From: an uncultured Prevotellaceae bacterium
GTDB lineage: Bacteria > Bacteroidota > Bacteroidia > Bacteroidales > Muribaculaceae
Length of the DNA stretch: 64,000 nucleotides
Assembly: GCA_900319525.1 (NCBI GenBank)
Contig: ONOU01000021.1
Coordinates: forward strand, 6,149 to 70,148
Direction of reading: 5' to 3'
The stretch's first letter is position 1. Every line of letters starts with the position of its first letter. Under the pieces are notes generated by a model, which saw only the letters and a list, made by a program, of their open reading frames with translations, made no database searches and was not told where the DNA came from. Shown in pieces: positions 38,882-64,000 of the stretch. The position numbers and the translations under genes were made by a program.

Positions 38882-40447
38882 ATGGACATTAGACTACCCA
38901 AGAGGATTGACGGCATGCAACCCGATGTGTTGCTCGATTCCAAACAGATTACCATTATCGGCACCAACGGCGCCGGTAAGAGCCGCTTTTGCTCGGCCCT
39001 GGTTGATGAACTGGGTGATAAGGCTTATCGCATCTCGGCCCTGAAGGCGCTCTTCCCCACGCCTGCCAGCACCAATCCGCTACCCGGCTCGATCGATGAC
39101 CTGTTCAACCGCATGAACGCTGCTAACCCGCAGGTCAAGAATCTGGCCGAGACCGAGTTTGATAAACTCTTTTACGTCATGCTCAATGACGAGTTCCGTG
39201 ACTTGATGAACTTCAAGGCGCACCAGCTCATGGGTGAGCAGATGGAGTTCCCCAAGACCAAACTCGACATCACCGTCAAGAAGTGGCAGGAAGTGTTCCC
39301 CAAGAACAAGGTGCTGCGCGAGAACGGCAAGCTGATGTTCACGAGCGAGGGCTATGAGGACAAGTATCCGTTACTGCGCCTGAGCGATGGCGAGAAGTCT
39401 GTGCTCTACTACATTGGAGCCGTGCTGTATGCCATGCCTGATGCCGCCATCCTGGTCGATGACCCCGAGACGTTTATCCATAGCAGCATCATGCGCACGC
39501 TGTGGAATGTGCTGGAACAGCTGCGCCCCGACTGCACGTTCATCTACAATACCCACGACGTGGGCTTTGCCAGCTCGCGCATCGACAACCAGTGCGTGTG
39601 GGTGAGGGAGTTTGACCCCGAGGCAATGGCGTGGGACTATGAGGTGATGACATCGAGCCGCAATCTTGACACGGCGCTGTTTGACCTGTTGGGCAGCCGC
39701 AAGCCAGTCCTCTTTATCGAGGGTGATGAAAAGCACAGCATCGACGCGAGGCTGTATCCCCTCATTTTCCCGGAATACACCATCAAGCCGCTGGGCAGCT
39801 GCAACAAGGTGATCGAGACGGTGCGCACATTTGGTGACCTGCAGAGCTTCCATCAGCTCGACAGCCGCGGCATCGTGGACCGTGACCGCCGCAGCGATGA
39901 GGAGGTCGAATACCTGCGCAAGAAGAATATCCTTGTCCCCAATGTGGCCGAAATCGAGAACATCCTCATGCTTGAAGGGGTCATCCGAGCCGTGGCGCGT
40001 CACAAGCGCCGTAACGAGAACATCGTCTTCCCCAAGGTCAAGAAGCGCGTCATCGAAATGTTTACCCGTGAGCTCAAGCAGCAGGCCCTCATGCATGTGC
40101 GCCACCGCGTCAAGCACGATGTGGAACTGCGCATCGACATGAAGTTCACCAGCATCAACGCCCTGGAGAACCACATGGTGGAACTGGTGAGCGAGATCAA
40201 CCCGCGTGGGCTGTACGATCAGTTGTGCCGCGAGTTCCATGTCTATGAGGACGATGGCGACTATGCGAGCATCCTCAGGGTCTATAACCAGAAACAGATG
40301 CTCAACGACAGCAACGTGGCCACGCTGTGCGGCTTCAAAAGCAAGGACGACTATATCCGCGGCGTGCTCAATATCCTCAAGGGTGGCAGCGAGAACGCTG
40401 CTGCCATCCGCACGGCCATCAAGCAGTGCTTTGGCCTGGACGAGTGA
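38882..40447 (+). CDS. fused ABC-type ATPase plus DUF4435 (TOPRIM-like) domain protein, OLD/PARIS-type architecture
   Basis: Walker A GTNGAGKS (res 27-34), signature LSDGEKS, Walker B ILVDDPETFIH and H-loop NTHD are present. After them come VLFIEGDEKHSIDARLYP (E280) and RGIVDRDRR (D333/D335), the DUF4435/TOPRIM pattern. Confidence 0.7.
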   Translation: MDIRLPKRIDGMQPDVLLDSKQITIIGTNGAGKSRFCSALVDELGDKAYRISALKALFPTPASTNPLPGSIDDLFNRMNAANPQVKNLAETEFDKLFYVMLNDEFRDLMNFKAHQLMGEQMEFPKTKLDITVKKWQEVFPKNKVLRENGKLMFTSEGYEDKYPLLRLSDGEKSVLYYIGAVLYAMPDAAILVDDPETFIHSSIMRTLWNVLEQLRPDCTFIYNTHDVGFASSRIDNQCVWVREFDPEAMAWDYEVMTSSRNLDTALFDLLGSRKPVLFIEGDEKHSIDARLYPLIFPEYTIKPLGSCNKVIETVRTFGDLQSFHQLDSRGIVDRDRRSDEEVEYLRKKNILVPNVAEIENILMLEGVIRAVARHKRRNENIVFPKVKKRVIEMFTRELKQQALMHVRHRVKHDVELRIDMKFTSINALENHMVELVSEINPRGLYDQLCREFHVYEDDGDYASILRVYNQKQMLNDSNVATLCGFKSKDDYIRGVLNILKGGSENAAAIRTAIKQCFGLDE

Positions 40448-52230: not shown

Positions 52231-52557
52231 CACAGAAAAACCAACTCCCGCAACCCACAACACCGCATAGCGGCAATACAAAAAAAATCAGCACGACTCT
52301 CCCGAGCGATGCTGACAATCATGTTTAACCCTAAAAAACCTCCAAAAATTATGAGTTCACATCTATATCTGCAATAACCGTGCCAACTTTTTGGTGTTAT
52401 AAATAACTGATATTTAGTGTGTTATTGTGGATGGTTTTCGAGCTTGCTTCCATGGATTTGCCATTAAAATGGCTCAAATGGGACAAAAATAGGGTACAAA
52501 AACGCCTCAAAAACTTACTATAAACAGTAGTGTGTCCCCTCTTTTTGTACCAAAATT

Positions 52558-57273: not shown

Positions 57274-58182
57274 TTAACCTTGCTCTGCTAAATTCCTTGT
57301 GTTGTATGCTGATTGTACTGTTCTTTTTATCTCTTCTGCGGTAAATCCATTAGCTCTGTCTTGATAGTATATTACCAGATAATCTTCAGCAAATTGTTCA
57401 GGAATGCCGCTATCCTTGAAGAACGAGGCCAAGATGAAAAGGTTGCAGTTCCGGTTCCCTTTCTGCATTGAATAATACTTTTCAAACAATTCATGTTCTT
57501 CAAGAATCCGTTTCCGAATCTCTGCGCTATCGGTAAGCACTGTGGCGCATCCCGAATAGTCCTTTTTATTGCCCTGTTTCGCTACAGGCTTACTTATTGA
57601 TTGTGGAAGTGCATCTATGTCCACATGATAAGCGATAGCGCTATCATTGATATAAATATCCTTGTCCACGCTCATGAAACATGCTCTGGATACATGTCCG
57701 CAACTGGTATCAAAAATCAGATCCGTCCGTCTTGTGAGACCCAATCGCTCACCCAGATAGGAGTACATATCATGGAATCGCATAGGGTCGATGAGGTCAT
57801 GAAGCACTAATACCTTTAGTCCATTTTGAGATGGTGATCTGAAGATGGACAACACACAAGGAAATGCTTTTAGTCTGTTTTTCTCACCTTGTAGATCCTT
57901 CACATCATCAAGATCGAAACAAACGACCCCGGACATGTCGATTAAAGCTTGATCCTCTCTCTTTTGAAAAGTTCCATTCGGGCAGAACACCGGTAAGAGT
58001 TTTTCTTTCAATTTGTTCCGTGTGGACTTGTCTTGTTCTTTAGCAATAACATCAACTATTCTTTTAATTGATTTATCACATCCCCCGATTTTTCTCAAGA
58101 GCTCCATCAACGGCACATGATTTGGGTACTTCACTGCTTTAATGTTAGAAAAAAAGCTAACTACTATATTGTTCTTAACCAT
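57274..58182 (-). CDS. BT4734/VirE N-terminal-domain primase-like protein (with PriCT-like C-terminus)
   Basis: The pattern KLKEKLLPVFCPNGTFQKREDQALIDMSGVVCFDLDDV matches the BT4734-like/VirE_N family seen in Bacteroidetes element primases. The C-terminal NRNCNLFILASFF...GFTAEEIKRTVQSAY is PriCT-like. Confidence 0.55.
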   Translation of the reverse strand: MVKNNIVVSFFSNIKAVKYPNHVPLMELLRKIGGCDKSIKRIVDVIAKEQDKSTRNKLKEKLLPVFCPNGTFQKREDQALIDMSGVVCFDLDDVKDLQGEKNRLKAFPCVLSIFRSPSQNGLKVLVLHDLIDPMRFHDMYSYLGERLGLTRRTDLIFDTSCGHVSRACFMSVDKDIYINDSAIAYHVDIDALPQSISKPVAKQGNKKDYSGCATVLTDSAEIRKRILEEHELFEKYYSMQKGNRNCNLFILASFFKDSGIPEQFAEDYLVIYYQDRANGFTAEEIKRTVQSAYNTRNLAEQG

Positions 58183-58307: not shown

Positions 58308-59951
58308 CTATGAGATAGTTAAACTTATTTGATAAAGAGAAAGAAATCTTATCAAGTTATCGTAGCGCGATTTTGCTTTTCTGTCCCTTGGTATGATATT
58401 ATATAATTCATCAAGCGAGATAGTGATGTTATAGGGTAAGTTACTTTCTATAGCATCTCTAATCTTGCTGTCGTATGAATAAAGAGCGACCAAATCCATG
58501 ATGTATTTCTTTTCTGGCTTTTTCTTAGCGACGATTGGTTTCGGCACTCCACTGATAGTACATGTTGACAGTGAGTTTGATCTGAAATATTCTTGAACTT
58601 TATAAATTCTGTCCTTTCTCAAATCATCAGTATAGTACACTCTGATAGGTAATCCTTTGTGCTGCCTGATCCTTAACCGGCATATAGTCTGAATAAGCAG
58701 TGATTCCATATACTGCTCATAGTCGCAATTGAGCCCGAACATGTGATTGATGTCATTGACAATATTCTCAGGGATATTCCATTCCCCGAAAAAAATGACC
58801 GTAGAATAATCTCTGAATTCATTTGATCCCCTGTCATGGCCACTCCCACGATAGATAACGCTGAATTTATCTTGATTTATTCCAGCATCAGAAGCAAGAT
58901 AATCGCTCAACAACTTACAAAAATCGCTTTCCGGCTTCTTGTCTGCTTCCAGTTCATCAATGCTTGTCCGCTGGAGATACAAGCTCATCCAGGTAATAAT
59001 GAGAACGCGACCTTGTTCAGATTCTTTTTTTACTATTTCCACCAGGCCATTGAGATACTTAGATACCTCGTTTTTGTTCCATCCTGTTAGGCTCTTTCTA
59101 GTGAATGGAAGCGGAAATTCAGTGAAGGTGATATCACTACTGTATTTTGAACCAGTAACAGGAAGAATTCTTGAATCGGTGCTACTGGCCAAACAATCGA
59201 TTGTTCCGTCAAAAAGAACAACACGCGAATCGTCCTTGAGTGAATCCAAGTTTACTTTAGCCCATTTAAAGCTGTTGTTCTGTCGAATTTGAGAAAACAG
59301 ATAATTCAGCTTGTATTTCTCAAGTTTATTACCCAGTTTCATCAGATTCAACCCACTACATTTGTAAGCTGCTTCCATCAAGACCATATCCTGATAAATG
59401 TGTTGGTATAACTTGTTGTCTGGATCGATTAGTTTCCCATTTATCCCAGGCTGCTCATCAATGTAGGTTAATACGTTCTTCAGCTCTATCGGGTCCACAG
59501 GCTGTTCTGGATAGAAATTTATCAATTCATCCACGAGTATCAATCCTCTACAACCGTTACGGTAAGCGGTAAATAAAGGTATAGGATCTAACTGAAACCG
59601 TGCTGATGTGATAACCAAGACTTCAAAATTACGTAATGATTCTGGGTCGTTACGGTAGTTGAGAAGTCTGTCACTAGATAACTCGCCGCTATGAAGAATA
59701 TAGGTGCCTATCGGTTGGAGTTGGGACCTCAAGTCTTCAGCCGCATCTATAGTGGGGACAACAATCAGAACACCGTCACTTCTATATCTCTGGGCGATTT
59801 CTGCTATGATTGTCGTTTTGCCTGACCCACAACCTGAAGAGACAAAATATAGCCCATTGCTCTGGGGAAAGTCAATGCTGCAATTAAGAAAATGCATCAT
59901 CGGTTTTCCTCCGGTTTCGATAAGCTTTATCGGTTGTTGATGAGAATGCAT
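58308..59951 (-). CDS. P-loop NTPase, putative helicase/translocase of the island
   Basis: Walker A SSGCGSGKTT, Walker B LILVDELINF and a late TICRLRIRQ (Arg-finger/motif VI-like) are present. The motif order is not a clean SF2 match, so the family is unresolved. Confidence 0.45.
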   Translation of the reverse strand: MHSHQQPIKLIETGGKPMMHFLNCSIDFPQSNGLYFVSSGCGSGKTTIIAEIAQRYRSDGVLIVVPTIDAAEDLRSQLQPIGTYILHSGELSSDRLLNYRNDPESLRNFEVLVITSARFQLDPIPLFTAYRNGCRGLILVDELINFYPEQPVDPIELKNVLTYIDEQPGINGKLIDPDNKLYQHIYQDMVLMEAAYKCSGLNLMKLGNKLEKYKLNYLFSQIRQNNSFKWAKVNLDSLKDDSRVVLFDGTIDCLASSTDSRILPVTGSKYSSDITFTEFPLPFTRKSLTGWNKNEVSKYLNGLVEIVKKESEQGRVLIITWMSLYLQRTSIDELEADKKPESDFCKLLSDYLASDAGINQDKFSVIYRGSGHDRGSNEFRDYSTVIFFGEWNIPENIVNDINHMFGLNCDYEQYMESLLIQTICRLRIRQHKGLPIRVYYTDDLRKDRIYKVQEYFRSNSLSTCTISGVPKPIVAKKKPEKKYIMDLVALYSYDSKIRDAIESNLPYNITISLDELYNIIPRDRKAKSRYDNLIRFLSLYQISLTIS

Positions 59952-60047: not shown

Positions 60048-61292
60048 TTACTCTTTGCTTTGGTATTCCTCAAAGAGTTGGTGGATTTTTGAACGAGCCA
60101 CGTCATAGCGAGAGAACTTATGAGGAACGCCGTCCACATCCTCAGTCTTACCAGCTGACTGATTAATAGCTGTAACCTCGCCTTGTGTGAGGGAGCCGAT
60201 AAACTTTGTGATGACATTAGCGGCATCCTCCAAGGTCGTTGTACCATCAGCTAAAAGGCTATGCATCTTTTCAATAAGATACTTAGATACCTCCTTTGAG
60301 CCGATCATCCTGGAATCGACTCCTGCAGTCTTGAGTGTCTCGTAGATTTCGCGACCATACTTGTTGCTTCCCTCGGTGAGTCTATTTCTAGTCTCAACAT
60401 CACTCTGTGCCTTATAGAGGCGGTTAGCCGTGGGTTGACGTTTGTATGTTCCGGTGGCATAGCCCCAAGCTGCGATTTCAGAGCAACCCTCTGTGGTGTA
60501 TTTTTTTACGAGCTCAAGAGTCTCGGTTACTTCCTTGTTGACCCCAGGAAGGTTGCTGCTATTCAGGAGGGATACCAGGTAATCAGTACCCTTCCAAGGG
60601 CGAGTCGAGATGTTGGACTCCCCTAACATGGTGAGGACTTTGGGGCGCTCGATCTGAGGAAAGATAACAGGAAGGTCGTAAGGACGCTCATCGGGCTTGC
60701 GTTCCAGATTGAGGCGCGTAACTGCGTCATCTCGGTGTTGACCATCGATGATGACGAGATAACTGTCTATATCGGGATCGTCGAGTGAAAGTTGATTGCC
60801 GTTCTCGTCCACGACCTCAAGACCTTGCTCTAAACAGGCTCTTGCGGATACGACCAAGATCGGACTAATGATACCATTGCTACGCTTGATGGACATCATT
60901 TTTTTCTTAACAACCTTGTCGTTGACTTCGCGGTTATTTCTCAGGCCGGCTTTCTTGAATCCATGAGAAGAGAGCTCGTCCCATGTGTAGATTCTGCGTG
61001 GGTCAAGACCGATGGGAATAACACTGGCCTGGTTAGCGATTTTATCCACAGGACTGCCCGCTGTGGTGGCCTGCTCATTTGCATCCAGAGCAGTAGGGAT
61101 GTCATTCGGAGTCGATACCTGTACAGCATTCTTCTCTTTCATAACTTCGTTGTTTGAGTTTGTTGTTTCCTGAGCGTTAATGTTCTGCTCAGTCTCGTTT
61201 ACACTGTGGCTCTCAGGAGCCGGATAAATAGAATTCTTCATTTCTTCAATTTTTTGTTGTTGATTAATAATGTATATTGTGAAATGCTTCAA
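60048..61292 (-). CDS. ParB/Srx-fold (DGQHR-motif) protein with disordered N-terminal region
   Basis: ISPILVV...YLVIIDGQHRDDAV is the ParB N-terminal/DGQHR nuclease-like core. An alternative start MKNSIYP lies at 61241. Confidence 0.6.
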   Translation of the reverse strand: MKHFTIYIINQQQKIEEMKNSIYPAPESHSVNETEQNINAQETTNSNNEVMKEKNAVQVSTPNDIPTALDANEQATTAGSPVDKIANQASVIPIGLDPRRIYTWDELSSHGFKKAGLRNNREVNDKVVKKKMMSIKRSNGIISPILVVSARACLEQGLEVVDENGNQLSLDDPDIDSYLVIIDGQHRDDAVTRLNLERKPDERPYDLPVIFPQIERPKVLTMLGESNISTRPWKGTDYLVSLLNSSNLPGVNKEVTETLELVKKYTTEGCSEIAAWGYATGTYKRQPTANRLYKAQSDVETRNRLTEGSNKYGREIYETLKTAGVDSRMIGSKEVSKYLIEKMHSLLADGTTTLEDAANVITKFIGSLTQGEVTAINQSAGKTEDVDGVPHKFSRYDVARSKIHQLFEEYQSKE

Positions 61293-61361
61293 CTCGGCTG
61301 TAACACTTCTGCTATGGTTTCACGTGCATTGTTTAAGATGCTCGTTCGCCCTTAGCACTGG

Positions 61362-61369
61362 CAAAATTA
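61362..61369 (-). promoter_or_regulatory. -7 promoter box (TAATTTTG) for the ParB-like gene
   Basis: Matches TAnnTTTG on the minus strand, 70 nt upstream of 61292. Confidence 0.35.
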
Positions 61370-61396
61370 CAGCCGCAAATTCGGGTGACCATAGCT

Positions 61397-61436
61397 TGTA
61401 GTGAACTGTAGTGAACTGTAGTGGATTGTAGTACAG
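61397..61436. repeat. four tandem 10-bp iterons (TGTAGTGAAC x2, TGTAGTGGAT, TGTAGTACAG)
   Basis: Head-to-tail copies with helical-turn periodicity, just upstream of the ParB-like promoter box. Confidence 0.7.
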
Positions 61437-61768
61437 TGCATTGATTTATAGACACTTGTACGATGTCCATTTCAGTGATTTTTGGGGAAGATGTTATTTG
61501 ACTTAAAGGGTACTAAAAGATGCCGTCCAAGAGTGGCATAAATCCCTTATATACAAGAATATAAAAAATGGCCCATTCATGGACCGCCCATATTACATAA
61601 AAGGAGGCGGCTTTATTTGGGCCATGACTATATATCATACCGTGATCATAGCCCTCAGCGAAGAGTTGATGCGCTTTTGATCACATCTTGACGTTAGAAT
61701 CTAGCAGTTTTCAAATTGCCACTCGTGCGACCTGATTTCTGTATAGAGAGTCAAGGAGGATTACAGGT

Positions 61769-61812
61769 TATATACCCACCGAAGAGGTGGATATAAGCCT
61801 GTTTTCTTTTTC
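61769..61812 (+). terminator. plus-strand intrinsic terminator with no annotated upstream plus-strand gene
   Basis: Stem TATATACCCACC/GGTGGATATAAG (10 pairs, one internal mismatch) with loop GAAGA, followed by CCTGTTTTCTTTTTCCC. The minus-strand reading has no T-run. Confidence 0.45.
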
Positions 61813-62070
61813 CCTCTTTAATACCTGATATGATGATTATATGCTAGGAATTCAAGCCAAAACACCGTCGAGATTCATAAGCAAAATATCTTTTATTTTT
61901 CTGGAACAACCTAATTTACCACGTTCTCAGAAAAATAAAAGCGCATTTTTTGATTTGAAAACTCAGCGAAATTCAATAAAAAAGCTCTGTTTTCGCTGAT
62001 TTTTAAAGAGGTTTTTGGGCCGAATTTCAGTTTCATTTTTGAAATTGTCATTCGGGTGAATAAAGGGTAA

Positions 62071-62104
62071 ATAAAAAATAAGCACGTTGAAACATGCTTA
62101 TTTT
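62071..62104 (-). terminator. rho-independent terminator of the ATPase/TOPRIM-like operon
   Basis: A 10-bp stem AAAATAAGCA/TGCTTATTTT with a 10-nt loop, followed by a T-rich tail on the minus strand, 24 nt after the stop at 62128. Confidence 0.6.
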
Positions 62105-62127
62105 ACTAGTAGAAAACGCTATATGTA

Positions 62128-62670
62128 TCACTTGTTTTCAAATATCTTTTGTAGTTCCGCTGTATCAGATCTATATTGATTCTCGTTCAGATAATTTAAT
62201 GCGGAGTAAAGCTTATTCATCTCTTCCGCTTTGATCAATGCTCCAAAAAGGGATTTAAAACGAGGATCTTTCTTGGCTTTGACATCTTTTGTGACTTTTA
62301 TAAACTCTTCCAATCTAGTAGGAAGACCATACTCTTCAAGATGAACGCCTAATTCAGCTGAGCAATCCAATATGAAACGGTCCATAGCTGGGCTTACCAT
62401 GACCAAGTAGTGAGGACGATCCCTGTGTTTAAGTAGTGAGATATGCTTTGTATTAGCAATTTCTATAAACTCATTCACATACGAGGGCTTGCGCTTGTCG
62501 TTATCAATGATGCCGATAGAGAACTGATCCTTTAGATTTGTCTCCTTCATGCTTCTAGCTACTTCATTACAGCCTTTTTTATGGTTTACACCAGATGAAT
62601 TTAGCAGAAATTCAGTAAGGCTTGTGTCAATGTAGCATTCTGGGACTACATGCCAGTCTTTCATTTTCAT
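62128..62670 (-). CDS. 180-aa TOPRIM-like protein (DUF4435/RloB/DUF4276-class candidate effector)
   Basis: The N-terminus has WHVVPECYIDTSL (Glu11), followed by SIGIIDNDKRK (Asp56-x-Asp58), the E...DxD TOPRIM spacing. Its start codon lies 1 nt after the ATPase stop. Confidence 0.5.
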   Translation of the reverse strand: MKMKDWHVVPECYIDTSLTEFLLNSSGVNHKKGCNEVARSMKETNLKDQFSIGIIDNDKRKPSYVNEFIEIANTKHISLLKHRDRPHYLVMVSPAMDRFILDCSAELGVHLEEYGLPTRLEEFIKVTKDVKAKKDPRFKSLFGALIKAEEMNKLYSALNYLNENQYRSDTAELQKIFENK

Positions 62671-62671
62671 A

Positions 62672-63730
62672 TCAGCCTAAGGTCTCTATGTTAAAGAATG
62701 CATCTACACCAAAGTCATATATAGCCTGAATATCTTCTTCTATGGCGCTCTTTACTGTCATAAAACCATCATCAGTAGTTTTGGTGTACAACAGAGTCAT
62801 ATCAATCTCTTGCTTCTCAATAAAGGCATTTAAAATATATGGACTATGAGTAGCAATAAAAAGACTATTGGGATGTTTGCCCTCAGTCTTAGTCAACAGC
62901 CATTCCACAAGGTTTGCCTGGGTCGGAGGAAAAAGATTAGCTTCAGGCTCTTCCAAAAAGATATCACAATGATGAGTATGGACATAGTTCGTAAAGACAT
63001 CTTTCTTATCCTCCTCATCCAATTTCGCTAACAAAACTCCTTGTTCTTGTAAATTTGCAAAACTCTCTATCCTTGAGTGCCTAATGTTAGTGATATGACT
63101 AAGGTGTATAAACAACGGAATGACTGACTGTAAACCACTTGATGTATTGGTAAAGTCAAGTGTAACGCCTTCGGATACCTGAACTTTATCAGACTTTGTA
63201 GCAGCATCATATCTGTATGACACTCCAAGATTTAAAACCTCTAAATCTTCTTTCGTCGCTTGACGGGCAGATTCCCAATCTGCCATAAAGTCACGAATAT
63301 TGTCATCAGCAAATTTGACTTGGAACCAGTTTGGAATAGCTGCAACAAGATTGCGCTCGGCGGGGATATATGTCACTTTGGAGCGATGGTAGTCCCATCT
63401 GCCTTCTTTCCACTTAAAATTGAATTTGTTTAAAGCATTATCAAATGAAAAAGACATGAATTCAGACTCATAGCTGATAAAGGTATCAGGTTTGATATAT
63501 CCTTTCAACTTGTGAAAACGCTCAAATTCCTTTGTGAAGTTACCGTCTTTCGCAAAGAAATCTGCTGACTGAGTCAGTTCAATACGCTTCTCTACCCAGG
63601 TACAATAACAAGCGGTTTTCAGGACACAACTTTTACCTGAACTCTGCGGACCAATGATTACATTGATTCGCTTCAATTCAATATCAGCCTCTTTGATTGG
63701 GCCCAAATTTCGTATCTTGATATGTTTCAT
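62672..63730 (-). CDS. ABC/SMC-type ATPase (AAA_15/AAA_21-like) partner of the TOPRIM-like protein
   Basis: From MKHIKIRNLGPIK: Walker A GPQSSGKS (K33), Q-loop YIPAERN, signature SSGLQS, Walker B/D-loop IFLEEPEANLFP and H-loop ATHSPYILN. Start supported by a -7 box 5 nt upstream. Confidence 0.75.
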   Translation of the reverse strand: MKHIKIRNLGPIKEADIELKRINVIIGPQSSGKSCVLKTACYCTWVEKRIELTQSADFFAKDGNFTKEFERFHKLKGYIKPDTFISYESEFMSFSFDNALNKFNFKWKEGRWDYHRSKVTYIPAERNLVAAIPNWFQVKFADDNIRDFMADWESARQATKEDLEVLNLGVSYRYDAATKSDKVQVSEGVTLDFTNTSSGLQSVIPLFIHLSHITNIRHSRIESFANLQEQGVLLAKLDEEDKKDVFTNYVHTHHCDIFLEEPEANLFPPTQANLVEWLLTKTEGKHPNSLFIATHSPYILNAFIEKQEIDMTLLYTKTTDDGFMTVKSAIEEDIQAIYDFGVDAFFNIETLG

Positions 63731-63735
63731 AATTG

Positions 63736-63743
63736 CAAAGTTA
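63736..63743 (-). promoter_or_regulatory. -7 promoter box (TAACTTTG), 5 nt upstream of the ATPase ATG
   Basis: Matches TAnnTTTG on the minus strand. The geometry matches that at 4345 and 41958. Confidence 0.4.
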
Positions 63744-64000
63744 ATGCATTTCTTTGATATAGTGAGCAAAATCATAAAAAGAAATCTGACTCGGTTTTCT
63801 TCTTTCCATATTCCCGGCTCTGGTTTTTATAAATGTGTCTTGAATACAGATATTGAAGCAGCCACAAACCGTCTCGAGTCAGGTTTACTTCCAACGGGAT
63901 ATGATGGGAAAATTAATCAGATTATTAACCTAAGATCATCTGATAAAAACGAATGAAAACAGTCCAACGAATACAAAAATACGTGCAGGTTGGACATATT

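Follow-up and report, generated by a model that had tools for sequence, protein, structure and literature searches.

What do two adjacent genes of a mobile-looking genomic island do, when one encodes an ATPase of a class known from anti-phage defence and the other a protein of only 180 amino acids (aa) to which no annotation can be given? The question is raised by a stretch of 64,000 nucleotides (nt) from a rumen Bacteroidales genome, that of an uncultured Prevotellaceae bacterium (GenBank assembly GCA_900319525.1, contig ONOU01000021.1, positions 6,149 to 70,148 of the forward strand), hereafter called the window and numbered from its first letter. An earlier note, made from the letters of the window, had proposed that the two minus-strand genes form an operon in which an ABC ATPase is paired with an unusually small TOPRIM-like effector. 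According to the analysis presented here, the pair is, with a probability of roughly 60%, a self-contained conflict module of two genes that belongs by its architecture to the OLD/PARIS/AbiL class, with a minimal, divergent nuclease of the TOPRIM type as its effector. It looks like a relative of the PARIS and OLD anti-phage systems that has not been described before.

Judged by its sequence, the first protein is a complete ABC ATPase of the OLD/PARIS class and lacks a long coiled coil. Every ABC ATPase motif quoted in the earlier note was found on reading: Walker A (GPQSSGKS), YIPAERN, the signature SSGLQS, Walker B (IFLEEPE) and the H-loop (ATHSP). The nucleotide-binding motifs are invariant across six aligned partner ATPases, the constant residues including G27, G32-K33-S34, E261-P-E263 and T294-H-S-P. 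With these motifs in order and Pfam scores above the gathering cut-offs for both AAA_15 (3.7e-13, 50.3 bits, cut-off 32.1) and AAA_21 (2.9e-9, 37.9 bits, cut-off 27), the protein belongs to the AAA_15/AAA_21 (OLD-like) class of ABC ATPases. Its best PADLOC match was PDC-M29A, a component of a candidate system (3.2e-57, 192.6 bits, covering positions 1-321 of the 410 in the model). The next matches, all of them far weaker, were AriA, NsnB, HEC-02A, ATPase-Toprim, GajA, Old and PtuA. All of the NCBIfam matches (retron Eco8 effector, MADS Mad3, PtuA, RecF and Rad50) were below threshold. It is this pattern of Pfam, PADLOC and NCBIfam matches on which we base the OLD/PARIS-class assignment. A phmmer match of residues 91-217 (63080-63460, minus strand; E ~1e-4) to the restriction glycosylase R.PabI was judged to be probably a chance one, because the aligned stretch holds the Q-loop and the ABC signature, both of them essential parts of the ATPase fold.

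The 180-aa protein gave nothing significant in Pfam, NCBIfam, PADLOC, PHROGs or the sequences of the PDB. A profile search of the PDB returned only coiled-coil noise, and scans of 44 and of 142 relatives for recurring weak matches yielded nothing but noise, DUF4276 being found in 2 of the 142 at the noise level of E = 0.027. Matches to OB_RNR_1st in 7 of the 142 relatives were judged spurious. The family itself is far from small. The first search already yielded 119 clusters of close relatives, all of ~175-190 aa and none with a Pfam domain, and at 50% identity we counted 1,075 representatives with E <= 1e-3, of which 571 had E <= 1e-10. By these sequence comparisons, the protein belongs to a large family that is absent from Pfam, NCBIfam, PADLOC and PHROGs, in agreement with the earlier suggestion that it may be of no described family.

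Conservation was counted over 142 diverse members of the family. The motifs PECYID and IIDNDKR, from which an E...DxD geometry had been read, are both present in the 180-aa protein, and the geometry extends to five acids retained in at least 139 of the 142 members: D56, D58 and E/D97 are conserved in all 142, E11 and D/E15 in 139 each. Nearly as constant are C12 and H30 (138 each), K128 (137), K59 and H82 (131 each). The AlphaFold model of the full-length protein was confident, with a predicted local distance difference test score (pLDDT) of 92.6 and a predicted template modelling score of 0.87. Residues 1-95 are modelled as an alpha/beta domain that contains E11, C12, D15, H30, D56, D58, K59 and H82. 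It starts with a strand (8-10) directly followed by E11, a helix (13-23) holding D15, a bridge at residue 28 and a second helix (34-43), and continues with a strand (51-56) that has D56 at its end and D58 just past it, a short helix, and three hairpin-connected strands (68-92). From residue 96 on, a helical C-terminal domain is predicted, with E/D97 at its beginning and K128 within it.

The TOPRIM pattern consists of a conserved Glu after strand 1, a DxD after strand 3, and further acidic metal ligands; the fold is a three-layer alpha/beta arrangement with a parallel sheet in the order 2-1-3-4, and in the classical motif the Glu is followed by Gly. As regards the residues, the small protein conforms to this pattern, with E11 after strand 8-10, D56/D58 at or after strand 51-56, and five conserved acids. 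The acids of RNase M5, which we read from its PDB sequence as E10, D14, D56, D58 and E96, occupy nearly the same positions. The set E11, D15, D56, D58 and E/D97 also parallels, in pattern and in spacing, the TOPRIM residues of the PARIS effector AriB (E26, D30, D88, E90 and E122; PMC11464382). For a comparison at the profile level, an AriB-type DUF4435 profile of 90 sequences was built from homologues of another protein of the window, encoded at 38882-40447. The alignment of the small-protein family to this profile by hhalign scored 32-35 (P = 2-3.5e-4), with E11 in register with the E of IEG, D15 with the D of SID, and the DxD with DRD. The score of 32.4 was higher than those of all 200 column-shuffled templates (mean 14.5, standard deviation 2.7, maximum 25.2). 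The earlier note had seen no obvious likeness between the 180-aa protein and the DUF4435 domain of the 38882-40447 protein, and in this it has to be corrected: a weak profile similarity exists, with the motifs in register.

The association of the two genes is constant. The earlier note would have counted it as a refutation if the homologues did not co-occur with the ATPase. In a survey in which one genome per species was scanned, they did so throughout: at all of the 80 loci returned, the small gene starts -16 to +9 nt from where an ABC ATPase open reading frame (ORF) ends. Nearly all of these loci are labelled Bacteroidales (Prevotellaceae, Muribaculaceae, Paludibacteraceae, Bacteroides, Phocaeicola sartorii, Butyricimonas synergistica, Duncaniella muris, Lepagella muris and Alistipes), one record being labelled Mycobacteriaceae. 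On metagenomic contigs with the small protein at 37-53% identity, the genes are paired in the same way, although their surroundings are unrelated (a capsule glycosyltransferase locus, housekeeping genes, TonB receptor genes). An identical small protein is encoded in a rumen metagenome-assembled genome of an uncultured Bacteroidales (locus L013). The partner ATPases form two clades, the window type, found at 45 loci, and a type of 331 aa, found at 35, which are 25% identical to each other and differ in their best PADLOC match. A neighbour-joining tree of the small proteins, calculated without support values, did not split cleanly by the clade of the partner. This hints at an exchange of partners between small proteins and ATPase clades, which is only suggested because the tree carries no support values. 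At one locus (L005:5011-6001) the partner ATPase is split into two ORFs of 127 and 208 aa next to an intact small gene, which may represent a decaying copy or a sequencing frameshift.

The sole match in the phage collection was Geoglobus ahangari pleomorphic virus 1, an archaeal pleolipovirus (BK065157.1, 2997-4438; locus L093). Its gp16 is a clear member of the small-protein family (hhalign probability 99.1, E = 1.7e-18) and overlaps the end of gp15, a 330-aa AAA ATPase; the pair is flanked by winged helix-turn-helix regulators, and a RelE/ParE toxin gene lies nearby. The module therefore crosses the divide between bacteria and archaea and can be borne by a virus.

In their layout, the two genes form the self-contained operon that had been proposed, with a -7 box and a terminator of their own. 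The gene junction, read directly as GGC TGA T ATG, leaves a single nucleotide between the ATPase stop codon (62672-62674) and the ATG of the small gene (62668-62670), just as the earlier note had it. The longest ATPase ORF in the ORF list spans 62672..63775 on the minus strand; the start is most likely the ATG at 63730 (MKHIKIRNLGP), which would give the 352-aa protein, because homologues begin at the equivalent ATG and the K33 numbering of the earlier note agrees with it. The Bacteroidota-type -7 box ends 5 nt ahead of this ATG. Of 73 distinct upstream regions of homologous loci, 60 carry the consensus TAnnTTTG no more than 100 nt before the ATPase start, compared with a background frequency of 0.066 per 106 nt. 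The distance of the box from the start is stereotyped, being mostly 5 nt with the window-type ATPase and mostly 18 nt with the second type. The promoter box is conserved, private to the cassette, and more than a chance match. From the 5-nt spacing, a leaderless or nearly leaderless mRNA is expected. Downstream, the terminator-like hairpin of 13 pairs with its T-run lies 24 nt past the stop codon of the small gene. In the window as a whole, TAnnTTTG occurs 48 times versus 24 +/- 5 expected from shuffles, an excess consistent with Bacteroidota promoter usage across the window.

An ABC ATPase with a small TOPRIM-type partner is an architecture already known from PARIS, AbiL and the Mad3/Mad4 proteins of MADS, and DUF4435, RloB and DUF4276 are known TOPRIM-type companions of this ATPase class (PMC11464382, PMC12065111). 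New in the present pair is the effector family, which is without annotation, large, made up of very small proteins, and without a detectable structural neighbour. With PARIS, the cassette shares the two-gene order of ATPase then effector, an AAA_15/AAA_21 ATPase, an effector with the constellation E-x3-D ... D-x-D/E ... E (AriB residues from PMC11464382), the weak similarity to the AriB-type DUF4435 profile above the shuffled null, and carriage on mobile elements. It differs in the size of both components (180 aa versus ~300 aa, or 35 kDa, for AriB; 352 aa versus ~55 kDa for AriA), in having Cys instead of Gly after the catalytic Glu, and in its invariant His residues. No match to Pfam DUF4435 (PF14491) or PADLOC AriB was obtained with the small protein and its 44 to 142 relatives. 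Nor is the ATPase an orthologue of AriA, whose model matches it at 8.2e-16, with the best stretch at residues 1-38, versus 3.2e-57 for PDC-M29A.

The ATPase is not wholly without a name, given its match to PDC-M29A. The small protein matches no PADLOC model, and the pair thus has component A only of PDC-M29, itself a computational candidate for which we found no publication mentioning it. The window ATPase is 35% identical to a full-length PDC-M29A-type ATPase at locus L002 and ends in another, shorter C-terminus than the model. The latter ATPase (433 aa, 7.7e-61) belongs to a second module (L002-L004, 1051-2966) situated in a capsule-polysaccharide locus, ~4 kb upstream of a pair of the second clade. 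Its partner has 205 aa and is unrelated to the 180-aa family; this partner had a single match, to the DUF4263 nuclease domain of Shedu, and it was weak (E = 0.005). Effectors are therefore exchanged within the ATPase lineage.

AbiL (AbiLi + AbiLii/RloB) and the Mad3/Mad4 pair of MADS (ATPase + DUF4276) resemble the cassette in that an ABC ATPase is followed by a TOPRIM-superfamily partner of ~200 aa (PMC12065111), and AbiLi is among the two best PADLOC matches of the second partner ATPase clade (4e-20 to 2e-17). However, the small-protein family gave no match to RloB (PF13707) and none above noise to DUF4276 (PF14103), the window ATPase reached 25.8 bits with the NCBIfam MAD3 model (cut-off 420), and no methyltransferase or other MADS gene lies near the cassette. 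A member of the OLD family (classes 1 and 2, including GajA) would have its ATPase and TOPRIM domains in one polypeptide, whereas the two proteins of the window are encoded by distinct ORFs, divided by a stop codon and 1 nt of spacer; the Old and GajA models match the ends of the ATPase only. RNase M5 is a stand-alone TOPRIM RNase, a housekeeping maturase of 5S rRNA with no ATPase partner. It is like the small protein in its length (~185 aa) and in its order of an N-terminal alpha/beta catalytic domain (TOPRIM) and a helical C-terminal domain.

The pair lies, as had been stated, in a low-GC island beside an integrase and replication genes (Table 1). The guanine-cytosine (GC) content drops from ~0.55 to ~0.37 near 52,400. 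The integrase has its Arm-DNA-binding and Phage_integrase domains within the first 434 residues, and the ~600 C-terminal residues are without a Pfam or PADLOC match. The IIDGQHR motif of the 414-aa protein is typical of ParB/DndB-like DGQHR domains, and at the thresholds used this protein matched nothing in Pfam or PADLOC. Between its gene and the small gene, a stretch of ~830 nt (61293-62127) holds no ORF longer than 52 aa and two terminator-like hairpins (62104-62075 and 61585-61570), with no Rfam match; no Rfam family was found in the island as a whole. In the near-identical locus L013, a 479-aa ATPase_2/AAA_14 protein is encoded directly upstream of the pair (L013:1103-2539), just past what would be window position 64000. 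Along its whole length, this protein matches PDC-S27, a PADLOC candidate (1.6e-189), and the island therefore carries two adjacent candidate defence loci. The 521-aa protein encoded at 38882-40447 (plus strand) is a merged PARIS (PADLOC AriAB, 1.7e-95; Pfam AAA_21 and DUF4435), so that a canonical ATPase-TOPRIM defence gene is present in the same genome, on the high-GC chromosomal part. As the AriAB match begins at model position 141, this ORF may be truncated at its N-terminus or its start may be miscalled.

Table 1. Coordinates of the gene pair, its signals and the neighbouring genes in the window
Feature	Coordinates	Strand	Basis or location
ABC ATPase gene, 352 aa	62672..63730	minus	ORF list, Pfam/PADLOC matches, motifs
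180-aa partner gene	62128..62670	minus	ORF list; family without annotation
Bacteroidota-type -7 box TAACTTTG	63736..63743	minus	direct sequence reading, fits TAnnTTTG
Intrinsic-terminator-like hairpin, 13 pairs and T-run	62075..62104	minus	terminator scan and sequence reading
Integrase, 1,036 aa	52558-55668	plus	low-GC island
BT4734/PriCT primase-like protein	57274-58182		low-GC island
Helicase-like protein	58308-59951		low-GC island
414-aa protein with IIDGQHR motif	60048-61292	minus	low-GC island

A number of results weigh against a defence module with a TOPRIM-type effector. The probability assigned by hhalign to the AriB-type DUF4435 alignment is only 37-47%, the alignment to the single RNase M5 sequence was not significant (P = 0.73), and searches with single sequences against the hidden Markov models of Toprim, DUF4435, RloB and DUF4276 produced no match beyond the DUF4276 noise described above. 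Structure searches were run with Foldseek for the full model (against the PDB and BFVD) and for the N-terminal domain (against the PDB), which was modelled separately to remove the noise of the helical domain (pLDDT 93.2). Neither model had a match at E < 0.01 (best E 0.23, 0.01 and 0.054; template modelling (TM) score at most 0.39), no TOPRIM protein appeared in any top 50, and RNase M5 was not recovered although its structures are in the PDB. In the predicted sheet, the canonical TOPRIM strand 2 is cut to a single bridge, and the three consecutive hairpin-connected strands after the DxD are unlike the four parallel strands of a textbook TOPRIM domain. No homologue of the small protein was found in IMG/VR or among the PLSDB plasmids. 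Finally, the 133 flanking ORFs surveyed from ~40 loci are mostly ordinary metabolic and regulatory genes; matches to defence or mobile-element genes were few (PDC-S27 twice, a HaeIII restriction enzyme, PDC-S02, WYL, VapE and HU-HIG), and a defence-island setting of the homologous loci is only weakly indicated. The flanks are heterogeneous and different in every lineage, which fits a freely moving two-gene cassette. Of the TOPRIM-like effector proposed at the outset, the acidic residue pattern has stood; for the fold, neither model gave a significant structural match. In our judgement, the small protein is probably a strongly diverged TOPRIM derivative with a reduced strand 2 and a beta-hairpin inserted before strand 4. 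A PIN domain, suggested by the DTN motif, was rejected because D15 sits in helix 1 and not at the end of strand 1; the structure search recovered no PIN structure. The residue positions are also superficially like those of a CheY/HAD-like phospho-acceptor, but the sole receiver-domain match was PorX (TM 0.25, E = 0.23).

The same observations can be read differently. The pair could be an ABC-ATPase-gated conflict module whose effector is not a TOPRIM protein at all, and the small protein a structurally new metal-dependent enzyme or a metal- or ligand-binding switch (with C12, H30, C34 and H82 as candidate residues), its acids having converged on the TOPRIM spacing. Two confident models without a structural neighbour would be expected in that case, as would the atypical strand topology with its hairpins and the absence of any Pfam TOPRIM-type match in 142 members, and the near-invariant C12, H30 and H82 have no counterpart in the classical TOPRIM motifs. 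We nevertheless hold this to be unlikely, since convergence would also have to account for an hhalign score above all shuffles with E, D and DxD in register and for a five-acid constellation whose spacing resembles that of AriB and RNase M5 (PMC11464382), next to an ATPase of a class whose known companions are of the TOPRIM type (PMC11464382, PMC12065111).

Other readings concern the role of the pair rather than the fold. Location on an integrative island in the window, and on an integrated or episomal archaeal virus beside a RelE/ParE toxin gene, would suit a toxin-antitoxin-like addiction module of mobile elements, with the ATPase in the role of antitoxin or regulator and the small protein in that of toxin, stabilising the island rather than defending against phage; the Pfam description of AAA_21 reads 'putative AbiEii toxin, Type IV TA system' (TA, toxin-antitoxin), and defence genes are rare in the flanks. 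Most of the 80 loci, however, are embedded in ordinary chromosomal surroundings, and the neighbour families that recur include no integrase, so that addiction to one particular element is not what the loci have in common. Addiction does not preclude abortive infection, and an addiction module would overlap mechanistically with the conflict module that we favour; taken as a separate explanation, it appears improbable, and more so than a non-TOPRIM effector. A housekeeping or element-replication role, with a RecF/SMC-like ATPase and a small accessory factor that would serve DNA repair, partition or the replication of the island, we regard as very improbable. The primase-, helicase- and ParB-like (DGQHR motif) neighbours in the window would point that way, but none of these replication genes occurs in the other 79+ contexts, in which the pair stays constant. 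Similarly, the weak similarity to SMC_N, RecF and Rad50 at the Walker A end of the ATPase is countered by SMC and RecF scores far under the cut-offs. A patchy distribution, at least one disrupted ATPase copy (L005), and the pair's own promoter and terminator also speak against such a role.

For the favoured reading, a conflict module with a minimal TOPRIM-type nuclease, a mechanism can be proposed because of the analogy with PARIS, in which AriA sequesters AriB until ATP-dependent sensing of a trigger frees AriB to cleave tRNA-Lys (PMC11464382). By this analogy, the 352-aa ABC ATPase would serve as sensor and gatekeeper, and the 180-aa protein would be a two-metal nuclease with E11, D15, D56, D58 and E/D97 as catalytic acids, to which the helical C-terminal domain would supply the invariant lysine K128. 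In the putative two-protein complex, the ATPase would keep the nuclease inactive; upon an ATP-dependent response to a trigger derived from a phage or a mobile element, the nuclease would be released or activated, and its cleavage of nucleic acid would abort the infection. Like AriB, and like P2 Old, which was reported to be a tRNase (bioRxiv 10.64898/2026.07.10.737580), the nuclease may cut tRNA. The anti-phage function of the pair is purely inferred, the indirect signs of it being the architecture, the place on an island and the PDC-S27 neighbour at L013. More tentatively, and with somewhat less than even confidence, one may go further and see in the 180-aa protein the founder of a new effector family, shared by Bacteroidota and an archaeal virus: a minimal two-metal nuclease, recruited apparently more than once by two ATPase clades, with a confidently predicted fold that has no detectable neighbour among solved structures or predicted viral ones. 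It and the ATPase would then make up a new system, acting against phage or by abortive infection and abundant in Bacteroidales of the gut and rumen, whose target or logic of activation might be new as well.

Nucleases gated by ABC ATPases (Old, Gabija, PARIS, Septu, AbiL, Menshen) make up a major and actively studied branch of prokaryotic immunity, and a cassette of a 352-aa ATPase and a 180-aa effector would be among the smallest of that branch. If the effector is a stripped-down TOPRIM nuclease, the pair would offer a compact system in which to study the restraint and release of a nuclease by an ABC ATPase. The use of the same effector with two ATPase clades that are only 25% identical amounts to a natural experiment on the docking interface, for which the conserved C-terminal tail ...Y-x-x-G-[VI]-D-x-F-[FT]-N-x-E is a candidate. 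The effector family is common in Bacteroidales, the dominant order of the gut and rumen whose defence repertoire is poorly explored experimentally. As the pair is missed by PADLOC models and by searches based on Pfam domains, counts of defence systems in Bacteroidales that rely on them are likely underestimates.

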